Below, in pieces: positions 342-58,183 of a DNA stretch of 64,000 nucleotides. The notes under the pieces were generated by a model. It searched no databases. It had not been told where the DNA came from and was given only the letters and a program-made list of their open reading frames with translations. The translations under genes were made by a program, and so were the position numbers. Numbering within the stretch: the first letter of the stretch is position 1; the number at the start of each line of letters is the position of its first letter. The stretch comes from a virus. The stretch lies in IMG/VR virus record IMGVR_UViG_3300026557_000003, positions 2,527 to 66,526 of that record; one strand, given 5' to 3'.

Positions 342-592
342 GTTGCATCTTGCTTTATCTCCCAATGAACTGCCTCGTCTTTACCTACAGCAATGAGTGT
401 TAATTCGTGGCCTGCAAATAAATAGAACGTCTCAAGAATTTCGACGCCTTCACTTGTTCTTATGCGAATCATCTGATCAGGCGCGCCGTTACTGAAATTC
501 GTAATACATGTTGCGTCTGGTCGCGGCCAAAATCGCAGCAGCAAATATACTGCGACGATCAGTACCAGTGCGATGATTACGCTATTGTCCAT
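338..592 (-). CDS. Small protein with N-terminal TM segment
   Basis: MDNSVIIALVLIVAVYLLLRFW hydrophobic stretch; overlaps the upstream gene in the leftward module. Confidence 0.5.
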   Translation of the reverse strand: MDNSVIIALVLIVAVYLLLRFWPRPDATCITNFSNGAPDQMIRIRTSEGVEILETFYLFAGHELTLIAVGKDEAVHWEIKQDAT

Positions 593-911
593 CTGATTCG
601 ATCTCCTTTGCACAGTCCTCTATTTCCGCTGTGGCCTCGTCGGCACAATCACCAGCATAATTACGAATTATTGGTATCAGCTGACGCACAATCGCCGCGT
701 CTTTCTCCCGTTGCTCGCGCTGGGCCCGGGCGTTAATCTCATCAGCTAATCCAGAATCAAGTATTGAGGTTGCGATAATCGCCAAGCACTTTACGCATAG
801 GCGAGTATTCAACGCCGGATACAGCTTTGCCGGCGTGAAACAAGACTGACAGCGCGCCTCGGGTTGGCCCGTGAGATTGTCTAGATAACTTCGTTCGATC
901 ATTTTGCTCAC
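582..911 (-). CDS. Hypothetical zinc-binding protein
   Basis: CQSC...CVKC pairs; tightly packed in leftward module. Confidence 0.55.
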   Translation of the reverse strand: MSKMIERSYLDNLTGQPEARCQSCFTPAKLYPALNTRLCVKCLAIIATSILDSGLADEINARAQREQREKDAAIVRQLIPIIRNYAGDCADEATAEIEDCAKEIESDGQ

Positions 912-919
912 AATATCTC

Positions 920-1336
920 CTACGCTGGATTTCCGCTTACGACCTTGCCTTCGCGGTCCTTGAATAGGTAGTCATCTTTGCTAATCGATATGCTCCTGTC
1001 TGAAAAAACTAGCACGAGCGTCTCATCAAACGTTCTGAAGTGTGCAGCATCGGCAAACACTGATACCTGAAATCCATTATTACCAATATATTGAATGCTC
1101 TCGTATTCTGGATTCATTTCACGCCGCCCTGCTTGCTCTGGGATGTATACCACGGCGCGACGATACCCCAGATCGCGCATAATCTGCATTCCTGGTGCTC
1201 TCCGTGCCTTCAGAACATCGCTCAGGTAAGAACCGGACACCCCAATTTTTTCGGCATAGGCTTTCTGTGATCCAGCCTTCGTAACTGCCATCATCAACAA
1301 GTTGTAGAAATCCTGCTCAGTTATCTGGTTCTTCAT
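920..1336 (-). CDS. XRE/Cro-like HTH DNA-binding protein
   Basis: GSQKAYAEKIGVSGSYLSDVLKARR is a typical HTH; promoter directly upstream. Confidence 0.75.
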   Translation of the reverse strand: MKNQITEQDFYNLLMMAVTKAGSQKAYAEKIGVSGSYLSDVLKARRAPGMQIMRDLGYRRAVVYIPEQAGRREMNPEYESIQYIGNNGFQVSVFADAAHFRTFDETLVLVFSDRSISISKDDYLFKDREGKVVSGNPA

Positions 1337-1342
1337 AAATCC

Positions 1343-1371
1343 ATAATACGCATATCAGCGTATCAGGTCAA
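1343..1371 (-). promoter_or_regulatory. sigma70-like promoter, probably giving a leaderless HTH mRNA
   Basis: TTGACC-17 bp-TATTAT on the minus strand; predicted TSS about 1336 coincides with the ATG; TATCAG direct repeat in the spacer. Confidence 0.65.
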
Positions 1372-1557
1372 ATGAAAAACATTAATCAAATCCGCGCGCG
1401 CAAACCATCCGCCGCGTAAGCAAAAATTCGGTCCTGAGAATTTTTCTGAGTGGGGAAGTTGGTACGCGACAGCGTTCAACTTCTTGTGACCTTTTTGTGG
1501 CGTAAGCCACGATATGACCTTTTAAAAAACGGTACATATTAACTATAACATCTTTGT

Positions 1558-1657
1558 GGTACGTTTCGGCCCTACCCCAGGGCCAGAACGTACCTACTTA
1601 AGCAGGGCTGATTCGTACCTACCCTGCGCCGAAAGTAGGGCCAGAACGTACCTACTT
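1558..1657. repeat. Iteron-like cluster (putative origin)
   Basis: AGGGC-N5-CGTACC at 1579, 1604 and 1637, plus an inverted copy at 1558-1573; AT-rich tract at about 1520-1555. Confidence 0.7.
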
Positions 1658-2083
1658 TTTGCGCGCTTTCCGTGCCTGAAATGGGGAAACCTTGCCATCC
1701 TTCGCGTCGATTTCGGGGAATTCTTTCTTGCAAAGGTCCCCCGTTTCTTCCGAGTACCTTTTAATTGCCTCAAGCACAGTCGTAACGCCCACGATAAATC
1801 GACGGGGTTTCCCTCTGGTAACTGTTGGCTCGGTGATGAATTCAAGATCGAGTAAAATAGACCGTGCCATTTCCTGTTGTCGTCGAGTGAGTCCGGTTTC
1901 TTTCTCCCACTGACGACGGGTTTTCCAAAATTCACCGTTGGGCTGATCGCTGCATTCCCACCAAAACCACGCTTGGGATAGAAAGATTGTTGCCTCGATT
2001 GATTTTGTTAGCTTGAAGAAGATTCGACGGTAACGAACAGAAACGCGGAAATAACGGTCAAAAAACGCTGGCGTCTGATTCAT
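1652..2083 (-). CDS. Phage replication initiator-like protein (N-terminal winged-helix domain only)
   Basis: IFLSQAWFWW...WKTRRQWEKETGLTRRQQEMARSIL resembles N-termini of lambda O-like initiators; abuts the iteron cluster. Confidence 0.6.
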   Translation of the reverse strand: MNQTPAFFDRYFRVSVRYRRIFFKLTKSIEATIFLSQAWFWWECSDQPNGEFWKTRRQWEKETGLTRRQQEMARSILLDLEFITEPTVTRGKPRRFIVGVTTVLEAIKRYSEETGDLCKKEFPEIDAKDGKVSPFQARKARKK

Positions 2084-2201
2084 TGGCTACACTTCCAATG
2101 TGAATTTCGTGTGATGATTGCAGCGAGAATGTGTGTAGTTCATCCTCGCCACAACCCAAAACTCTGTGATCAGCAGAGCGACACGATTCGCTGATTATAC
2201 C

Positions 2202-2402
2202 CTACTTCGCGAACAACGCACCCGGTTTTTTGCGGACGCTCACAAGCCGGACGGTCTGCTTGCCAGTGCACCGCGATTCCTCTTCAATAACGACCTGGAT
2301 GCCAAGCAAGCCGTAGTTTTTGCGATCAAGAGTCACGGCTAGCGGCTGCCCACATTTTCCGCAGAATAAAGCATTCGATGCAGATAATTTGATATTTGGC
2401 AA
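2202..2402 (-). CDS. Hypothetical protein
   Basis: CGKC motif; same strand as the module; TTG start uncertain. Confidence 0.35.
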   Translation of the reverse strand: MPNIKLSASNALFCGKCGQPLAVTLDRKNYGLLGIQVVIEEESRCTGKQTVRLVSVRKKPGALFAK

Positions 2403-2464
2403 GTGTAGTTTCGGCTACATCGTGGTAGTATATCCACACAAGAGACTTTAAGGAGAAATAAATT

Positions 2465-2743
2465 GTGGGTTCGGGTCCCACCTTTCGCACCAAATCTATG
2501 GCTGAATACACTGTTAATCAGATAGATAAGATTGTCATCGGGGCGCTACGTGACTGTATCTATCAGCACGGGCCAATAACACACGAGTGGATTGCTTCAG
2601 CAGCCAAAAGAATTACAACGCAGCTTCGCGGAGCGATTAAGAACAAACAAATCACCGAAGAAGACGAGATTCTCGATCTATTCGACTCGGTTGATGGCAA
2701 CGGCAAGGAAACGCTACAACGCTTCGGCGAGATATGCCGCTAA
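2465..2743 (+). CDS. Hypothetical protein
   Basis: AAGGAG upstream of GTG 2465; alternative ATG at 2498. Confidence 0.45.
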   Translation: MGSGPTFRTKSMAEYTVNQIDKIVIGALRDCIYQHGPITHEWIASAAKRITTQLRGAIKNKQITEEDEILDLFDSVDGNGKETLQRFGEICR

Positions 2744-2801
2744 CGATCTTTCCCGGAAGCGCAGCCCGACACTGCACCCGAACGGTAGCGGCTAATCCTG
2801 A

Positions 2802-3470
2802 CTACCAACGACTGTAGGGACATTTTCGCGAAGGCAGCCTGGGTATCCTCGCCGCAATTTCTGGATTCCACCCGGTTCGTATTCTATTTCGAAACATTTC
2901 GAAATCTTCCTCTCTAACGTTAAAACGCTTGGCCCATTCCCGCACTCTCAGTGATTCCCCCGCGAATGTAAACGTTTTGGGCGGATTTGTTTTACGCTTG
3001 GTGTTGGTACCACTTAAAATTTCATCAAGACTCTTTCCTCGCTGAATATTCGTCGCGACAACGCTCCTCTTGAGTCCATGTCGATCACACCATTCAGCTA
3101 AACACATCTTTTCGCCATTGCATTCTACGATTCGATTACTCCGTTTATTCCGTGCGTTCTGGGTTCTTGTGGCCCATCGTAAATTCATCGGCCAACCATT
3201 TTCAAGGCACTCTGAACACTGGCCGCAACTATAGTGCCCGTCATTGTCTTTTCTGTCGATCTGCATTGAAGGGTCTGGTCGAGGACCTACCGTAGAGTAA
3301 AAAGCGCCAGCGGAAGAGAGCAAGTAACCACATATCTTGATTCCCCGACCGCCGTAATCTTTCCATTGTGGTTGGCGCGGATTCAAGCACCGCGTCTTGA
3401 TGCGGTCCCAGGTTTTAAACTCGGGCGTACCACTCAATCCGTGAATCGTGTTAAAATGAAATTCAGCCAT
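2802..3470 (-). CDS. HNH-type homing endonuclease (HNH-1)
   Basis: WDRIKTRCLNP...YGGRGIKIC...IDRKDNDGHY...NLRWATRTQNARNK; AAAGGAG RBS before ATG 3470. Confidence 0.85.
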   Translation of the reverse strand: MAEFHFNTIHGLSGTPEFKTWDRIKTRCLNPRQPQWKDYGGRGIKICGYLLSSAGAFYSTVGPRPDPSMQIDRKDNDGHYSCGQCSECLENGWPMNLRWATRTQNARNKRSNRIVECNGEKMCLAEWCDRHGLKRSVVATNIQRGKSLDEILSGTNTKRKTNPPKTFTFAGESLRVREWAKRFNVREEDFEMFRNRIRTGWNPEIAARIPRLPSRKCPYSRW

Positions 3471-47296: not shown

Positions 47297-47977
47297 ATGA
47301 ATTTTAATCCACACGAACAAGACTCTGAAACTCAAATCGCAATGGCAGAAGCTAGAAAGACAATGCTAAAGACGAACAAAATTACTGTTTTCGATATTGA
47401 GATTATCAAAGCAATTCCTGACCGCAATCAGGAGAATGACCCGACTATTAAATATTGCGGCGGCTGGCAGGATCACGCCGGAATGGGTATCTCAGTTATC
47501 GGAGCATATTCATACGCAGATGACCGTTATCGGGTTTTCCTCAAAGACAACTTTGGGCTATTCGAGGACCTGTTGCACGAATCAGATATTGTTGTGAGCT
47601 TCAACGGTCTAGCATTCGATAACCGCGTATTGGAAGCCTGTGGCATCAACCCGCCAGACGCGACAACCTACGATCTGTTGGTCGAAACCTGGGCTGCCGC
47701 TGGACTCGCGCCGAAGTTCAATTATAAGACACACGGCGGCTTTGGTCTTGACGCCGTATGTTCTGCGAATTTCGATCTGAACAAGACTGGACACGGCGCA
47801 CTTGCCCCCGTCCAATGGCAACAAGGCAAATACGGACACGTCATTGATTACTGTCTCGAAGACGTAAGATTAACCAAAAAACTGTTCGACCTGGCCACGG
47901 CGGGGCCAATCAAGAACCCGAAATCCGCAATTGGTGGAAGTTATTTGATGTTGCGGGATCCATTTATCGTGAAATGA
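47297..47977 (+). CDS. DEDD/RNase H-like 3'-5' exonuclease
   Basis: VFDIE, SFNGLAFD, YDL, LDAV, YCLEDVRLT. Confidence 0.85.
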   Translation: MNFNPHEQDSETQIAMAEARKTMLKTNKITVFDIEIIKAIPDRNQENDPTIKYCGGWQDHAGMGISVIGAYSYADDRYRVFLKDNFGLFEDLLHESDIVVSFNGLAFDNRVLEACGINPPDATTYDLLVETWAAAGLAPKFNYKTHGGFGLDAVCSANFDLNKTGHGALAPVQWQQGKYGHVIDYCLEDVRLTKKLFDLATAGPIKNPKSAIGGSYLMLRDPFIVK

Positions 47978-47996
47978 TCGATTATATGCTTACTTA

Positions 47997-48080
47997 TGCT
48001 AGAATAAGGTCGAGTCGAAAAGACGTTACCAGCGCCCTTTCGACTCTCACCTATACCACTCGTAACATAAGGAGCACGAG
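47997..48080 (+). promoter_or_regulatory. HNH-5 promoter and leader
   Basis: TGcTAGAAT; GAGTCGAAA/TTTCGACTC stem with CGTTACCAGCG loop; CTCACC; CTCGT-aacataaggagc-ACGAG. Confidence 0.7.
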
Positions 48081-48084
48081 CAAT

Positions 48085-48657
48085 ATGGCTGTCGATAAAT
48101 ATACCATACTCGCCAATCTACCATCTTCCGTGGTTGATCGTTTCTGGAAAAAGGTCGATAAACAGAATGGACCGATCCTTATGCACTGTTCTCGTCTCGG
48201 CCGTTGCTGGCAGTGGTTCGGAGACAGGAATCAGGGCGGCTACGGTAGTATGAGGCTTGGTTCTTCTTCTTGGGCGGCACGTGCCCGTGCGCATATTATT
48301 TCATGTGCCATCGACAGAAACGGAATACCAGAAGGCTCTCTGGTCCTGCATAAATGTGATAACCCCTCATGCGTAAGGCCTAGTCATTTATGGCCCGGCT
48401 CGCAACGCGAAAACGTGGCAGACATGATGGCAAAGAAGCGGGACCGCCGCCCTGGTTCCAGATCAGGCGTTGCTGTGAATTATTCTCGCGGCGAGGATCG
48501 TCACAATGCTCATTGCACGGAAGCGATCGTGCTGGCCATGCGAGCGGATTATATTCCCGGCGTTTTTGGCTGCAACAAGATAGCAAAAAAATATAACGTA
48601 GTATGCCGAGATGTCGTTGCTCGTATTATCAGGAGAGAAATATGGAAGCATATTTAG
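48085..48657 (+). CDS. HNH homing endonuclease (HNH-5)
   Basis: RFWKKVDK...CWQW...VLHKCDNPSCVRPSHLWPGSQRENVAD; TAAGGAG RBS. Confidence 0.92.
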   Translation: MAVDKYTILANLPSSVVDRFWKKVDKQNGPILMHCSRLGRCWQWFGDRNQGGYGSMRLGSSSWAARARAHIISCAIDRNGIPEGSLVLHKCDNPSCVRPSHLWPGSQRENVADMMAKKRDRRPGSRSGVAVNYSRGEDRHNAHCTEAIVLAMRADYIPGVFGCNKIAKKYNVVCRDVVARIIRREIWKHI

Positions 48658-54040: not shown

Positions 54041-55815
54041 AACTCTACGAAATCGTTAGAATCTTCGATGCTAAAAAGGCTGGCAAAGAATTTAAGGCCA
54101 AATGCCCGGCCCACAACGACAGCACGCCTTCACTGTCGATAACTCAGGGTAACGATGGTGTAGTTATGATCTGCCATGCTGGATGCGATACTGATTCCGT
54201 ACTGGCGAGCAAGGGGCTGAACGCGTCCGATCTTTTTGAATCAAACTCCACTGTTGCGATTTCCGATCATCAGCGGGCGGTGAAAAAGAAATTCAAGATG
54301 CCGGAATATAAACCTGTCGAGCTCGCACTTGACGAAAAAGTAATCGCCTGGTTTGAGACGCGCGGGATTACTGACGAGGTTTTACTGGCAAACAAGATCG
54401 AATACCGCAAAGTCTGGATGCCGCAAGTTGAGGGCGAAGTAGGCGCGATCTGTTTTCCGTACTTCCGGGACGGCGAAGTCGTGAATGTTAAATACCGCGC
54501 TCGTGGCAAACATTTCAAAATGGAAAAGGGCGCGGAACTGGTTCTCTACGGACTGGACCGGATCCAAGCGGGCGAACCGCTTTATTGGGTCGAAGGCGAA
54601 GTTGACGCGCTCTCTTTGGATGTCGCCGAATATACGAACAGGGTGTCCGTTCCAAACGGTGCTGGCGGTGGCGCATCGAAGGATTACGAACGGGGGTTGT
54701 CCTATCTTGCCAGTTCACAGGTTCAGCTTGAATCGATTGACCGTCACATAATCGCGGTCGATAACGATATTGCCGGACGTGGCCTGCAGAACGAATTGAT
54801 CAGGCGATTAGGTCCAGAAAAGTGCTTTACCGTTGCGTGGCCGAAAGACTGCAAAGACGCAAACGATGTGCTGATGACCTATGGCGTCGATATTTTGAAA
54901 GAATGCTTGGCCGACGTTCAACCAGTTCCAGTTGCTGGAATCTACAGCATTAAGGACATTGAAGACGATATTGTCGGCCTGTACTACAAACCATTGCCGG
55001 GCGGCGAGTATCCCGGAACGGACAATCTGGCGAAGTTCTACCGACCGCGTGCGGGTGAATGGACTCTCGTTACGGGAATACCATCGTCGGGCAAATCGCG
55101 CTGGGTAGGCTGGCACGTCGTCCAATTAGCAAAGAGCCTGGGTTGGCAATTCGCGATTTGCTCACCGGAGCATCAGCCACTTCAGCGACACGCAGCGGAA
55201 TTGATTTCGTGCTTTAACGGAATGCCTTTTCGTGAAGGCCCGAACGAGCGAATGTCCGCCGAGCAGCTAAACCAGGGTATCGATTGGCTCGATAAACACT
55301 TTTCTTTTTTGCTGCCAGACGACGAAATGACAATCGAAAGAATATTAGAACTTTCGCGAGTTGAGGTTTTCAGGCGTGGAATCAAGGGACTTGTGGTCGA
55401 TCCCTGGAACGAATTCGACCATACCAGACCAAAGGGAATGAGCCTGACCGAATACGTGGGAAAGACTCTAATTAAAATCCGACAGTTTGCGCGGCGTCAT
55501 CAAGTCCATGTCTGGGTCGTGGCGCATCCCCAGAAGCTACAGAAAGACAAAGACGGCGAATACCCAGTACCGACGCCATACGACGTGTCTGATAGCGCCC
55601 ACTGGTACAACAAACCAGATATGGCGCTGACGGTCCACCGGGATAAGCTGGACGATTCCAAAGCCGTCGATATTCACATTCAGAAAGTTCGCTTTGAAGA
55701 AAACGGGCACATCGGTGTTGCGGAAATGTTCTTCAACAAACTCAACGGTCAGTATTCAGACGAAGCCCCAGGGCAGAGGTTTTTACAATATGGTAGAGAC
55801 GATGAAAGCAATTGA
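54037..55815 (+). CDS. Primase-helicase (zinc finger, TOPRIM, SF4 helicase; T7 gp4/Twinkle-like)
   Basis: CPAHND...CHAGC; WVEGEVDALS; AVDND; KDAND; TGIPSSGKS; VVDPWN. Confidence 0.92.
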   Translation: MKLYEIVRIFDAKKAGKEFKAKCPAHNDSTPSLSITQGNDGVVMICHAGCDTDSVLASKGLNASDLFESNSTVAISDHQRAVKKKFKMPEYKPVELALDEKVIAWFETRGITDEVLLANKIEYRKVWMPQVEGEVGAICFPYFRDGEVVNVKYRARGKHFKMEKGAELVLYGLDRIQAGEPLYWVEGEVDALSLDVAEYTNRVSVPNGAGGGASKDYERGLSYLASSQVQLESIDRHIIAVDNDIAGRGLQNELIRRLGPEKCFTVAWPKDCKDANDVLMTYGVDILKECLADVQPVPVAGIYSIKDIEDDIVGLYYKPLPGGEYPGTDNLAKFYRPRAGEWTLVTGIPSSGKSRWVGWHVVQLAKSLGWQFAICSPEHQPLQRHAAELISCFNGMPFREGPNERMSAEQLNQGIDWLDKHFSFLLPDDEMTIERILELSRVEVFRRGIKGLVVDPWNEFDHTRPKGMSLTEYVGKTLIKIRQFARRHQVHVWVVAHPQKLQKDKDGEYPVPTPYDVSDSAHWYNKPDMALTVHRDKLDDSKAVDIHIQKVRFEENGHIGVAEMFFNKLNGQYSDEAPGQRFLQYGRDDESN

Positions 55816-56401
55816 AACCGTATACCGTGGAATCAATTTTCGGTCGCGCAACGAAGCTCGGTGGGCGGTCTTTATGGATCAACTCGGAATTCCGTTTGAA
55901 TATGAACCTGAGGGTTTTGAGTTGAACGGTTTGCGTTATCTTCCCGATTTCTATCTAACCGATCAGAAGATTTGGGCCGAAGTGAAATCCCAGTTACCGA
56001 ATGAAACCGAGAAAGAGAAAGCTGTTCGTTTGGTCAACGAAAGTGGGCTGGCGCTGGTTTTCCTGATATTCTCGCACGGCCGCGCCGAATCAATTGAACA
56101 TTCCGGCGGCCCGTTCTATCCACCAAGCTCGAAAGATCGTCACCCGCAACTGGCGGTTTGGCAAAACTGCATTGGCTGTAAAGCGTTCTCGGTCGGCCCA
56201 TATGCACCGGCAGCTGGATTTGAATGCTGGAATTGTGGACTCAAACTGACGAGCGAACAGGTTTTAGAATTGGCCGATAAGGGGCAAGAGGTTTTCGACG
56301 AGACGATCCTGGCTGACGCGTTCACAGTTGCAAGACAGGCGCGTTTTGAATTCGGGGAAACCCCACACGGATTACCGCCTGTGGATCGAGAAGGCGTTTG
56401 A
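55802..56401 (+). CDS. PD-(D/E)XK-like phage nuclease
   Basis: IETVYRGINFRSRNEARWA...YEPEG...YLPDFYL...WAEVK. Confidence 0.75.
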   Translation: MKAIETVYRGINFRSRNEARWAVFMDQLGIPFEYEPEGFELNGLRYLPDFYLTDQKIWAEVKSQLPNETEKEKAVRLVNESGLALVFLIFSHGRAESIEHSGGPFYPPSSKDRHPQLAVWQNCIGCKAFSVGPYAPAAGFECWNCGLKLTSEQVLELADKGQEVFDETILADAFTVARQARFEFGETPHGLPPVDREGV

Positions 56402-56446: not shown

Positions 56447-58183
56447 TTGAGTGCATACTATAACGAGTTTGATCCACAAAAGGCGGCTTGGTTACGTGAG
56501 TTGATCAAACGGAAACTAATAGCGGACGGAGAAGTTGATGAACGTTCAATCGAAGATGTCTTACCAGCCGATGTTGCTGGGTTTCGACAATGCCACTGGT
56601 TCGCCGGCGTCGGAATCTGGTCCTATGCTTTGCGAAACGCAGGTTGGGGTGATGACAGAGCCGTGTGGACTGCCAGTTGTCCTTGCCAGCCTTTCAGCAC
56701 CGCCGGGCTCGGAGAAGGAACCAGCGACGAACGGCACCTCTGGCCTGCATTCTTCAAACTCGTCGATGCCTGCCGACCGCCAGTCTTATTTGGGGAGCAG
56801 GTCGCGAGTAGTCACGTCGTCGGACGGGCATCGGGTGATTTTGATTACCTGCGGGGTTTGTCAGACCGAGAAGAGTTGCGAAGAATTTCGGACGCATGGA
56901 TCCCGGCGGAGATTTCGCGGTACGTGCAAGGACTGCCAGAACGAACAAGAGCGCAAGAGGCGATTAGTAAACGAGACGCGGACATCTGGTCAGCGCAAAG
57001 ATTGGCGGCGGAAGAATCGGGCATCGGCATTGGTCTCTTCAGCCAGATGCAGAGCGCGTACAGCCGGACTTCAATTCGATCTGGATACCGAGAACATACA
57101 AACGAGGATCGATGCTGGACGATGCGAATTAACGGGGATTCATTTCGACCTGGATGGCGATTGGAACAGCCCATCACTGGACAGGATAGACCCGAACGGC
57201 GGCTACACAGCCGACAATATCAGGGTAATTATTACAGCCCTGAATGTGATGATGAACAAGTGGGGAGCGGGGCGAGTCTTGGTTATTGCGGATGCTATGC
57301 GCCAGAAAACAGCTATTCGACAGGCGAGCGAGAACTTGACGCGCTCTTTGCAGGAGAAATTAAAACAGACGACGGACAGGCTTGGTTCGACCTTGTTTCG
57401 GCTGACCTGGAAGGAGCAGGTTACGCCCTCGGGTCGTGTATTACCCCTGCTGCGGGCGTCGGCGCTCCCCATATCCGACACCGTGTTTTCTTCATGGCCG
57501 ACTCCCAGAGCGAACGATGCGGAAAAGCATGGGAACGTAGCGGACGGCCCGTGCAACGGTTTGGTGGCAGCGGCGAATCTGACGAGTTGGCCAACACCGA
57601 CAGCGAACAATTACGAAATCAAGGACGAAGAGAAACTGAACCAGCGCCGGATTGCTTGCAAGGAACGGAATGGCAACGGGAACGGATTCGGTTACACGCT
57701 AGCCCAGGCTGCAATGTTGACGGGATGGGCAACGCCCCGGAGTCAGGAAATAGACGAGATACCGGAGAAGCGACAAGAGAGGAATGCGAGACATTTGGCA
57801 GTGGGGAAGATGAAGGGGATTGGGACCGCGAACCTTTCAACACAAGTCAAGCTGGCATCTTGGACGACTCCGGCGGAGCGAGACTACAAGGATACGCTGG
57901 GAATGGCAACGGTGGGAATCGACCCCGACGGCTCGGAGCGATCACGACTGGATCAGCTACCGAGGCAGGCCCAGTTAACGGATTCTGGCGAGACGCAGAG
58001 TGGGTTTACTGCCGACCAGAGCCAAGATACCCCGAAGGAAGTTATCGGGCAATTAGACCCGGCTCATCCCCGCTGGTTAATGGCGCTCCCGCCCGAATGG
58101 TGCGATTGCGCGGTTATGGCGATGGAATCAATGCAGAAGTCGCCAAAGAATTCATAAAGGCATATCTGGATTGTGTAGATTGA
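56447..58183 (+). CDS. C5 DNA cytosine methyltransferase, alpha frame (motifs I-VIII and X)
   Basis: FAGVG (I), SCPCQPFS (IV), GEQV (VI), GAPHIRHRVF (VIII), RLRGYGDGI (X); no motif IX in this frame. Confidence 0.88.
   Translation: MSAYYNEFDPQKAAWLRELIKRKLIADGEVDERSIEDVLPADVAGFRQCHWFAGVGIWSYALRNAGWGDDRAVWTASCPCQPFSTAGLGEGTSDERHLWPAFFKLVDACRPPVLFGEQVASSHVVGRASGDFDYLRGLSDREELRRISDAWIPAEISRYVQGLPERTRAQEAISKRDADIWSAQRLAAEESGIGIGLFSQMQSAYSRTSIRSGYREHTNEDRCWTMRINGDSFRPGWRLEQPITGQDRPERRLHSRQYQGNYYSPECDDEQVGSGASLGYCGCYAPENSYSTGERELDALFAGEIKTDDGQAWFDLVSADLEGAGYALGSCITPAAGVGAPHIRHRVFFMADSQSERCGKAWERSGRPVQRFGGSGESDELANTDSEQLRNQGRRETEPAPDCLQGTEWQRERIRLHASPGCNVDGMGNAPESGNRRDTGEATREECETFGSGEDEGDWDREPFNTSQAGILDDSGGARLQGYAGNGNGGNRPRRLGAITTGSATEAGPVNGFWRDAEWVYCRPEPRYPEGSYRAIRPGSSPLVNGAPARMVRLRGYGDGINAEVAKEFIKAYLDCVD
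56535..58157 (+). CDS. Nested +1-frame ORF (beta polypeptide): HNH domain, WxTP repeats, motif IX-like segment
   Basis: 540 open codons; CGVC/CKDC, SPSLDRIDPNGGYTADNIRV...N (HNH-like); GQLDPAHPRWLMALPPEW (motif IX-like); start uncertain. Confidence 0.75.
   Translation: MMNVQSKMSYQPMLLGFDNATGSPASESGPMLCETQVGVMTEPCGLPVVLASLSAPPGSEKEPATNGTSGLHSSNSSMPADRQSYLGSRSRVVTSSDGHRVILITCGVCQTEKSCEEFRTHGSRRRFRGTCKDCQNEQERKRRLVNETRTSGQRKDWRRKNRASALVSSARCRARTAGLQFDLDTENIQTRIDAGRCELTGIHFDLDGDWNSPSLDRIDPNGGYTADNIRVIITALNVMMNKWGAGRVLVIADAMRQKTAIRQASENLTRSLQEKLKQTTDRLGSTLFRLTWKEQVTPSGRVLPLLRASALPISDTVFSSWPTPRANDAEKHGNVADGPCNGLVAAANLTSWPTPTANNYEIKDEEKLNQRRIACKERNGNGNGFGYTLAQAAMLTGWATPRSQEIDEIPEKRQERNARHLAVGKMKGIGTANLSTQVKLASWTTPAERDYKDTLGMATVGIDPDGSERSRLDQLPRQAQLTDSGETQSGFTADQSQDTPKEVIGQLDPAHPRWLMALPPEWCDCAVMAMESMQKSPKNS

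Follow-up and report, generated by a model that had tools for sequence, protein, structure and literature searches.

A probable homing-type HNH cassette hidden out of frame in a dual-coded phage C5 methyltransferase gene

Introduction

How does a gene whose DNA is read in two frames take in several hundred extra nucleotides and stay open in both? The question is raised by a 64,000-nt stretch of viral DNA, positions 2,527 to 66,526 of the IMG/VR record IMGVR_UViG_3300026557_000003 (hereafter, the window), in which the gene of a C5 cytosine methyltransferase carries a 558-nt insertion. The gene is dual-coded: one open reading frame (ORF), alpha, encodes the catalytic chain, and a second long ORF, beta, is nested within it in the +1 frame. 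We are highly confident of the anatomy described below, which comprises a nested cassette, a loop where the alpha frame reads through it, a fusion of the cassette to beta, and a duplicated flank. The nature of the cassette can be named with less assurance. It is probably an old, homing-type, HNH-type cassette that lies 'hidden' and out of frame inside the phage gene, and a homing-type nuclease, selfish or formerly selfish, ranks first among its functional readings. The only sequencing run containing the whole stretch is a soil metagenome, the probable source, and no RNA run was listed as containing it. A megablast search of 24 kb of the window against GenBank phages gave no match.

Selection against stops in the alpha frame

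The gene and its insertion are laid out in the window as follows.

56447-58183, + strand: alpha ORF, 578 amino acids, catalytic chain of a C5 cytosine methyltransferase
56535-58157, + strand: beta ORF, in the +1 frame relative to alpha, 540 amino acids, nested with an overlap of about 1.6 kb
56810-57367, + strand: insertion, 558 nt, alpha codons 122-307; a stop-free spacer in alpha, an HNH-type domain and a relocated helix in beta

Across the insertion there are no stops in the alpha frame and 13 in the third frame. An alpha-frame stop arises wherever a beta codon with a final T is followed by one that begins with AA, AG or GA. When the beta protein was resampled with synonymous codons, a mean of 10.9 alpha-frame stops was expected and none of the 20000 resamples was open. 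A first, sequence-only reading of the window had put the chance of such an open stretch at about 1e-4 under equal codon use; the arithmetic is correct, and the probability given the beta protein is lower still.

The avoidance of stops is visible junction by junction. In the window, T precedes none of the 52 stop-prone junctions and 36 of the 132 others, and in 15 IMG/VR loci with an embedded copy the corresponding counts are 0 of 783 and 417 of 1994. The nested HNH ORF of another locus (L018) has T before none of its 40 stop-prone junctions, and four loci from metagenome-assembled genomes (MAGs) have it before none of 223. Free-standing HNH relatives serve as a matched control, with T before 208 of 514 stop-prone junctions. 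A second control lies within L018 itself, where a free copy of the same HNH family just past the alpha stop has 14 stops in the equivalent frame. Taken over the window and 20 further loci, none of about 1100 stop-prone junctions gives a stop (about 1050 of them outside the window); alpha-frame stops in homologous inserts, which would have spoken against the sequence-only reading, were thus not found at these junctions. The embedded set includes loci of only 44-46% G+C, and the alpha motifs upstream and downstream of the insert are retained in every embedded locus for which both gene ends were available. The open alpha frame is the result of selection against stops and not of chance. This avoidance in 21 loci bears out the proposal that a nuclease-type domain is fused in frame to beta and that alpha tolerates a large loop beside motif VI.

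What is conserved in the insertion differs from what is conserved around it. Among 13 HNH-bearing loci, the mean pairwise identity of the N-terminus (motifs I-VI) is 0.69 in the alpha frame, 0.33 in beta and 0.34 in the third frame, and the C-terminus has 0.49, 0.39 and 0.35, respectively. In the insert the values are 0.25 for alpha, 0.43 for beta and 0.27 for the third frame; therefore only the beta amino-acid sequence is conserved there, and alpha is constrained only to openness. The alpha-frame insert matched no Pfam family, and its structural model has a predicted local distance difference test score (pLDDT) of about 30 over most of its length, with one long helix at 45-78. The description of a 186-codon, stop-free and motif-less alpha insertion therefore holds.

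The insertion, the empty allele and the duplicated flank

Alignment with the methylases of RcExplorer, EBPR podovirus 2 and epsilon15 and with 76 insertion-less IMG/VR loci places about 186 extra codons between FGEQVAS and DDGQAW, as had been predicted. The distance from GEQV to motif VIII is a constant 38 codons in insertion-less genes and about 213 codons in the window and its relatives. In silico deletion of 56810-57367 yields ...FGEQVAS|DDGQAWFDLV... in alpha and ...ADRQSYLGSRSR|VTTDRLGSTLFRLTWK... in beta, both in register with the insertion-less genes, so that removing the 558 nt does rejoin both frames.

The insertion follows directly after the codons of motif VI, at the most conserved DNA of the N-terminal half of the gene. 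At the insertion site the major-allele frequency is 0.93, and third positions reach 0.82 there against 0.62 overall. Homing elements typically target highly conserved sites, and dual coding creates such sites. As a separate observation, Rhodobacter phages (L001:1477-2637) carry an extension of about 20 codons, AEVFGKAPKRARGNAVPPPDWAW, at the same position after motif VI, where 6 is usual, and the site appears to be generally tolerant of length changes.

An intein or an intron was considered and rejected, in agreement with the sequence-only reading. Rfam gave no intron match in the insert at E up to 1, the sole match being a chance long non-coding RNA, and no Hint/intein domain was found among Pfam families in the alpha-frame insert. 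In alpha the insert starts with Ser-His and ends with Lys-Thr followed by Asp, which does not resemble a pair of intein junctions (Cys/Ser at the N-terminus, His-Asn plus Cys/Ser/Thr at the C-terminal junction).

The two edges of the insertion carry different versions of the same short stretch.

56789-56809, + strand: upstream flank copy; keeps alpha motif VI (FGEQVAS), and reads LGSRSRV in beta, without the Leu heptad
57327-57368, + strand: downstream flank copy at the 3' end of the insert; beta helix SENLTRSLQEKLKQ with Leu-x3-Leu-x3-Leu

In the 76 insertion-less loci the beta peptide over alpha motif VI follows the pattern SA.L..SL.SRL.A, with Leu retained at its three Leu columns in 75, 75 and 74 loci. 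Of 15 HNH-bearing loci, only 2, 2 and 0 have Leu at these columns; in such genes the Leu-x3-Leu-x3-Leu helix is found instead at the 3' end of the insert. In alpha the downstream copy reads ...LDALFAGEIKT, a decayed echo of LFGEQVA, and its beta helix touches alpha in a predicted complex of the two chains. The insertion point lies on a stretch needed by both frames, and therefore the stretch is now present twice, with the upstream copy serving alpha and the downstream copy serving beta. The interval 56810-57367 had been described as an HNH insertion. This stands for the nuclease cassette, but the last 14 codons (57327-57368) are the relocated piece of beta and not nuclease.

The nuclease-type domain in the beta frame

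Beta residues 111-267 match phage endonuclease families, namely phrog_3322 (1.3e-29) and phrog_1035, 'endonuclease VII' (5e-21), over DNA positions 56850-57266. Two parts of the domain can be delimited.

56850-56936, + strand, beta frame: Cys4 zinc ribbon (CGVC ... CKDC; Cys106, 109, 131 and 134), invariant in the family alignment
57123-57266, + strand, beta frame: predicted beta-beta-alpha-metal core (CELTG ... WNSPSLDRIDPNGGYTADNIRVIITALNVMMNKWG)

Arg173, Cys197, Trp210, Pro213-Ser-Leu-Asp216, Gly223-Tyr224, Asn228 and Asn237 are retained in 22-24 of 24 embedded, nested and free relatives; for Asp216, Tyr224, Asn228 and Asn237 the count is 23-24 of 24. Asp216, Asn228 and Asn237 are candidates for the Asp and Asn metal ligands and the structural Asn expected of HNH / His-Me finger nucleases. 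A fold model built with 16 sequences has a mean pLDDT of 82, and its core runs strand-strand-helix (beta 122-126, beta 138-142, helix 143-152). The best match among solved structures is PacI (Foldseek E 3.3e-3, probability 1.00; Z score 7.6, which is middling and, being below 8, not decisive; root-mean-square deviation 3.9 over 94 residues), with no detectable sequence similarity. The Gme HNH nicking enzyme (Z 6.0) and McrA (Z 4.7) also match at a middling level, and the zinc ribbon matches the zinc repeat of Hpy99I (Z 5.2 over 41 residues). PacI binds its metal via Asp and Asn and uses Tyr as the general base (PMC4081073), and for this reason the conserved Asp/Tyr/Asn set of the domain fits a PacI-type variant. 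By analogy with PacI, we infer that Asp216 and Asn237 are metal ligands, and Tyr224 is perhaps the base.

Searches by sequence were less informative. The HNH profile gave nothing significant against the sequences of solved structures (best E 0.056, a zinc-ribbon-like stretch), neither the HNH domain nor the beta core is represented by a model in Pfam, NCBIfam or PADLOC, and a library scan gave no match to known defence or restriction models. Neighbours in the AlphaFold DB are mostly unnamed, and a few are labelled HNH endonuclease. The earlier description as a zinc-binding HNH-like domain thus stands as regards the endonuclease families, the Cys4 ribbon and, at a middling level, the predicted fold, but the canonical HNH histidines are absent.

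The two-frame methyltransferase

The motifs of alpha and the core of beta are arranged along the gene as follows.

56600-56614, + strand: alpha motif I, FAGVG
56681-56698, + strand: alpha motif IV, PCQPFS
56789-56803, + strand: alpha motif VI, FGEQV
57384-58100, + strand: beta core, with GSTLFRLTWK, W-x-T-P repeats at 57492, 57585, 57723 and 57858, RLDQLPRQA, and a motif IX-like segment
57467-57484, + strand: alpha motif VIII, PHIRHR
58112-58129, + strand: alpha motif X, GYGDGI

Alpha starts at TTG 56447 (MSAYYNE, the same as in homologues), with GGAAGGAA just upstream, and matches the C-5 cytosine methylase family (PF00145, 2.9e-10; phrog_363, 2e-65, profile positions 10-315). Beta residues 253-534 match phrog_1008 (3.8e-23), a family labelled DNA methyltransferase. 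In order, beta consists of an unconserved leader, the HNH-type insert, a helix, four W-x-T-P repeats, and the motif IX-like segment QLDPAHPRWLMALPPEW (58050-58100), which was putatively assigned to motif IX by position and pattern.

Beta likely starts at ATG 56538 or ATG 56556, both of which are embedded in the alpha sequence DERSIEDV; GTG 56835 is a further candidate. The probable start ATG (56538-56567) is made of the conserved alpha Glu-Asp-Val codons GAA GAT GTC. The Asp codon of DERSIEDV is GAT in 60 of 76 loci, as compared with 40% GAT elsewhere in the same genes, and this excess hints that a start codon concealed in the other frame is under selection.

The nested frame is a general feature of the family. 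From the more than 586 IMG/VR relatives, about 80 loci were fetched as the best matches to the alpha N-terminus; nearly all of these contain, within alpha, a single long +1 ORF (about 250-400 codons), and their third frame has 5-32 stops. In the methylase coding sequences (CDSs) of Rhodobacter phage RcExplorer, EBPR podovirus 2 and Salmonella phage epsilon15, a nested +1 ORF is open for 355, 304 and 348 codons, respectively. GenBank phage methylases (epsilon15 L003:1556-2602, L001:1562-2629 and L002:1489-2403) are annotated as a single CDS, and their conserved nested beta ORF of 300-355 codons is left unannotated.

The AlphaFold (AF2) model of alpha is confident only in parts of the catalytic core (pLDDT 84-96). 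A second unconserved region of alpha, from motif VIII to the NGFW block (57485-57976), has an identity of 0.25 and a pLDDT of about 33 and overlies the W-x-T-P repeats of beta. This region seems to be a second read-through spacer, in which case alpha would perhaps be built from three folded parts with two spacers between them.

A model of the complex of alpha with beta 262-540 reached a score of 0.89, and the best of three controls scored 0.00. The mark used for such models was reached by 51 of 78 solved complexes and by 2 of 108 mismatched pairs. Contact agreement among the runs was at least 41%, and the pLDDT of the partner was at least 51. In this model the beta segment QLDPAHPRWLMALPPEW is predicted to pack on the N-terminal helix and motif X of alpha. 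Since solved structures exist for single-chain C5 methyltransferases, the pass may reflect mere resemblance to them.

The gene just upstream (55793-56401) gives matches to Holliday-junction resolvase/endonuclease families (phrog_21138, 1.6e-32; phrog_9019, 4.3e-10), and its C-terminus is rich in Cys. It is itself preceded by genes for a primase/helicase and an O-like replication initiator. Another HNH-type gene of the window (47974-48657, 227 amino acids) has a ...HKCDNPSCVRPSHLW...REN... motif and shares an ATGA overlap with the stop of an exonuclease-like gene upstream.

Relatives and history of the cassette

The architecture of the window recurs in 15 IMG/VR loci (14 distinct sequences), in four MAG contigs labelled Rhodospirillaceae, Terriglobia, Desulfovibrio and Pseudomonadota, and in at least 20 metagenomic beta-type proteins of 32-54% identity. 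In 17 of 19 distinct loci, as in the window, the HNH domain is fused in frame to the beta core and lacks a start or stop of its own. In the remaining arrangement, seen in L018 and L020, the beta frame is split into a leader, the HNH ORF and the beta core, and alpha is open throughout. The separate HNH ORF has a AGGAAAAG-type site and its own ATG, which is preceded by TAGGAAAAG or TAGGGAAAAG, and the ATG of the beta core lies within one codon of the HNH stop or right behind a second stop.

L018 combines one methyltransferase gene (alpha of 642 amino acids) with three HNH genes within 588-3100. The first, of the same family as in the window, is the separate nested ORF (991-1491). The second (1972-2418) is nested near the alpha C-terminus and is unrelated; it looks canonical (HHVD ... 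N ... CH..H), matches Pfam HNH at E 0.038 only, and causes no alpha-frame stops. The third (2507-3100), again of the window's family, is free-standing and spans the alpha stop.

Relatives of the HNH domain in GenBank phages are free-standing, share 26-40% identity with it and sometimes occur at two or three places per genome, and no embedded copy was found among the GenBank phage matches listed. The separate-ORF variants and these free, multi-copy relatives suggest that the cassette arose from an independent, invasive endonuclease gene. In the viral genome studied here (69.2 kb, estimated to be 99% complete), only one copy of the HNH family was found.

The insert is rare, being carried by 3 of the 80 best family loci. 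In a tree of 84 alpha genes, parsimony requires 8 changes to account for the 14 HNH-bearing rows; at least 2 of these changes are forced by starred branches, and the rows are clustered (0 of 500 shuffles as low).

Weighing the explanations

If the cassette is of the homing type, the gene may be pictured as follows. The alpha frame would yield the catalytic chain (motifs I-VIII plus X), and the nested +1 frame would yield the beta chain with its helix, W-x-T-P repeats and motif IX-like segment. Alpha-frame ribosomes would read straight through the cassette and produce an unconserved loop of about 186 residues, probably flexible in view of the low model confidence, and selection has purged all stops from this frame of the cassette. 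Beta-frame ribosomes would start at an ATG within DERSIEDV and make the leader, the zinc ribbon with the beta-beta-alpha-metal domain, and the beta core as one chain. The cassette would have begun as a free-standing homing-type phage HNH gene. The domain may still be a working nuclease, and alpha, with its loop, may together with beta still methylate DNA.

Several observations weigh against this interpretation. The domain has no conserved His anywhere, and its motif PSLD(R/Q)I places Asp-Arg where HNH enzymes show Asp-His. The structural matches are middling (best Z 7.6), the family has no Pfam model, and some HNH relatives carry an Srd-like anti-sigma factor annotation. In the window and most embedded loci, the HNH has neither a start nor a stop of its own. 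No clear sign of recent mobility emerges from the history of the element: a single clade of HNH-bearing genes is not rejected (approximately unbiased (AU) test, p 0.177), and HNH distances (mean 0.55) are larger than those of the host N-terminus (mean 0.31) and correlated with them (Mantel r 0.34, p 0.003). The element thus looks old and, rather than having moved recently, seems for the most part to have been handed down and to have diverged together with the gene, with occasional loss or transfer possible. Doubts also concern the methylase of the window. Its motif X is GYGDGI as compared with GYGNAI in at least 90% of relatives, and its branch on the alpha tree is long; because of these two features, full methylase activity of this copy is not assured. 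The motif IX-like segment of the window is likewise atypical (QLDPAHPRW versus QLNPAxSRW), and the three features together may reflect relaxed constraint on this copy.

A domesticated nuclease arm is, in our view, an unlikely alternative to the homing-type cassette, and the one that survives best. HNH-beta would be brought to the methylase's own sites and would cut unmethylated host or rival-phage DNA, alpha and beta would protect the phage DNA, and a restriction-modification-like enzyme would be encoded on one DNA stretch. The in-frame fusion in 17 of 19 distinct loci favours such an arm, as do long-term purifying selection, partial co-divergence with the host gene, the single origin that the AU test does not reject, the predicted docking of beta on alpha beside the base of the loop (at the complex score given above), and the restriction enzyme PacI as the nearest solved fold. 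[quoted passage not shown] The separate HNH ORF in two loci and the three HNH genes of L018 also look like repeated invasion.

It is still less probable that the module has lost catalysis and serves as a DNA-binding, zinc-binding or regulatory (e.g., Srd-like) appendage of beta, or that it is a neutral passenger that could not be lost without breaking two frames. A neutral passenger would not hold 43% identity where the non-coding frame holds 27%. Lost catalysis would agree with Arg or Gln in place of a conserved His at the usual general-base position, and a regulatory role with weak matches to Srd and 'decoy of sigma70' families (phrog_4592, 3.2e-6; phrog_1400, 1.6e-3) and with such annotations on relatives; no experimentally characterised relative was found in the searches made. 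The near-invariant Asp216, Tyr224, Asn228 and Asn237 nevertheless form the set that PacI uses (PMC4081073), which speaks against an inactive module.

A single polypeptide produced through programmed frameshifting (from alpha into beta and back into alpha), or an artefact of assembly or sequencing that mimics two ORFs, is very improbable. If joined in their order along the DNA, the conserved pieces (I-VI from alpha; HNH, helix, repeats and IX from beta; X from alpha) would give the conventional single-chain order, but alpha is open through the HNH and beta repeat regions in every locus, which a frameshifted chain would not need, alpha motif VIII sits in the alpha frame between beta-frame segments, the motif IX-like segment of beta and the conserved pre-motif-X segment of alpha share the same bases, the same layout is seen in independent metagenomes as well as in MAGs and GenBank phages, and M.EcoHK31I experimentally yields two chains from such a gene (PMC2836561). 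The double-frameshift chain was rejected, both frames being open.

Comparison with known systems

Hidden, out-of-frame HNH endonucleases have been described in the DNA methylases of actinobacteriophages as the ShiLan domain and the Pacc40 insertion (Gosselin et al., 2023, PMC9957025; Arsenault, Gosselin & Gogarten, 2025, PMC11855218), and the hidden-HNH-in-methylase design is therefore already published, for mycobacteriophage methylases, in 2025 (PMC11855218). There, as in the window, an insertion of about 200 codons lies at a conserved site of a phage methylase, is stop-free and meaningless in the methylase frame, encodes an HNH-type nuclease with zinc fingers in another frame, lacks intein and intron features, and is predicted to form a loop in the host-frame product. 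One edge of the ShiLan element is joined to the flank of its site by a repeat of about 11 codons (an 11-residue repeat; PMC11855218), which is comparable with the duplicated flank found here.

The host gene of the window, by contrast, is a two-ORF (alpha/beta) methyltransferase, and the two methylase families are likened here by design. The ShiLan HNH has its own GTG ... TAA, whereas the HNH of the window lies in the beta frame, is fused to beta and has no start or stop of its own. The nuclease belongs to another, His-less family (phrog_3322, PacI-like). Furthermore, ShiLan elements are near-identical across divergent methylases, and a single clade is rejected for them, whereas the elements studied here are old and more diverged than their hosts.

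The two-frame layout itself resembles M.EcoHK31I, in which the beta ORF lies within the alpha gene in another frame, alpha has motifs I-VIII as well as X, and motif IX is on beta (PMC2836561). In this type of enzyme, methylation requires both chains. The N-terminal part of that beta is dispensable, and there are internal starts (PMC2836561). The target-recognition domain of M.EcoHK31I was assigned to its alpha, whereas in the present family the middle of alpha is unconserved and the conserved W-x-T-P region lies in beta. M.EcoHK31I also has no nuclease insertion, and the beta ORF of the window extends over almost all of the gene.

PacI and other Cys4 beta-beta-alpha-metal enzymes (PDB 3m7k/3ldy, 4h9d and 3fc3; PMC4081073) share with the domain the best fold match, structural Cys4 zinc sites, Asp and Asn as candidate ligands, and Tyr in place of His. 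PacI differs in being a free homodimeric Type IIP enzyme that is not nested in a methyltransferase gene, and sequence similarity to it is undetectable.

Free-standing homing endonuclease genes are also said to split host genes, as mobE reportedly does in nrdA of Aeromonas phage Aeh1. As in the window, a phage endonuclease gene is said to sit within a conserved coding gene, with neither intron nor intein and with host function kept. In that case, however, the host gene is reportedly cut into two separately translated pieces, whereas the host frame of the window would be translated straight through.

Implications

Particular to the present case are a nuclease that lies in the frame of the nested beta chain and is fused to it, a His-less, PacI-like family without a Pfam model, and clean internal controls. 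Beyond the methylases of actinophages, the 'hidden HNH' also occurs in a large two-frame C5 methyltransferase family, whose members come from uncultured phages and from contigs that were binned to several bacterial phyla. The matched free-standing controls, including one in the same locus, give quantitative proof that the openness of the host frame is selected. The duplicated flank illustrates how an insertion can be accommodated in dual-coded DNA, the shared stretch having been duplicated and the meaning of one frame kept in each copy. As gene callers annotate only one of two overlapping ORFs, public records either lack the beta chain and the nuclease or give them wrong names.

The fusion of HNH to beta also raises the question of whether a selfish nuclease has been recruited as an arm of the methylase. 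That HNH-beta is a working enzyme arm rather than a parasite, with the nuclease welded to the chain that carries the putative recognition region, is doubtful on present evidence. If true, the nuclease would be aimed at the sites that alpha and beta methylate, and the two frames of a single 1.7-kb stretch would encode a phage-borne, restriction-modification-like machine.

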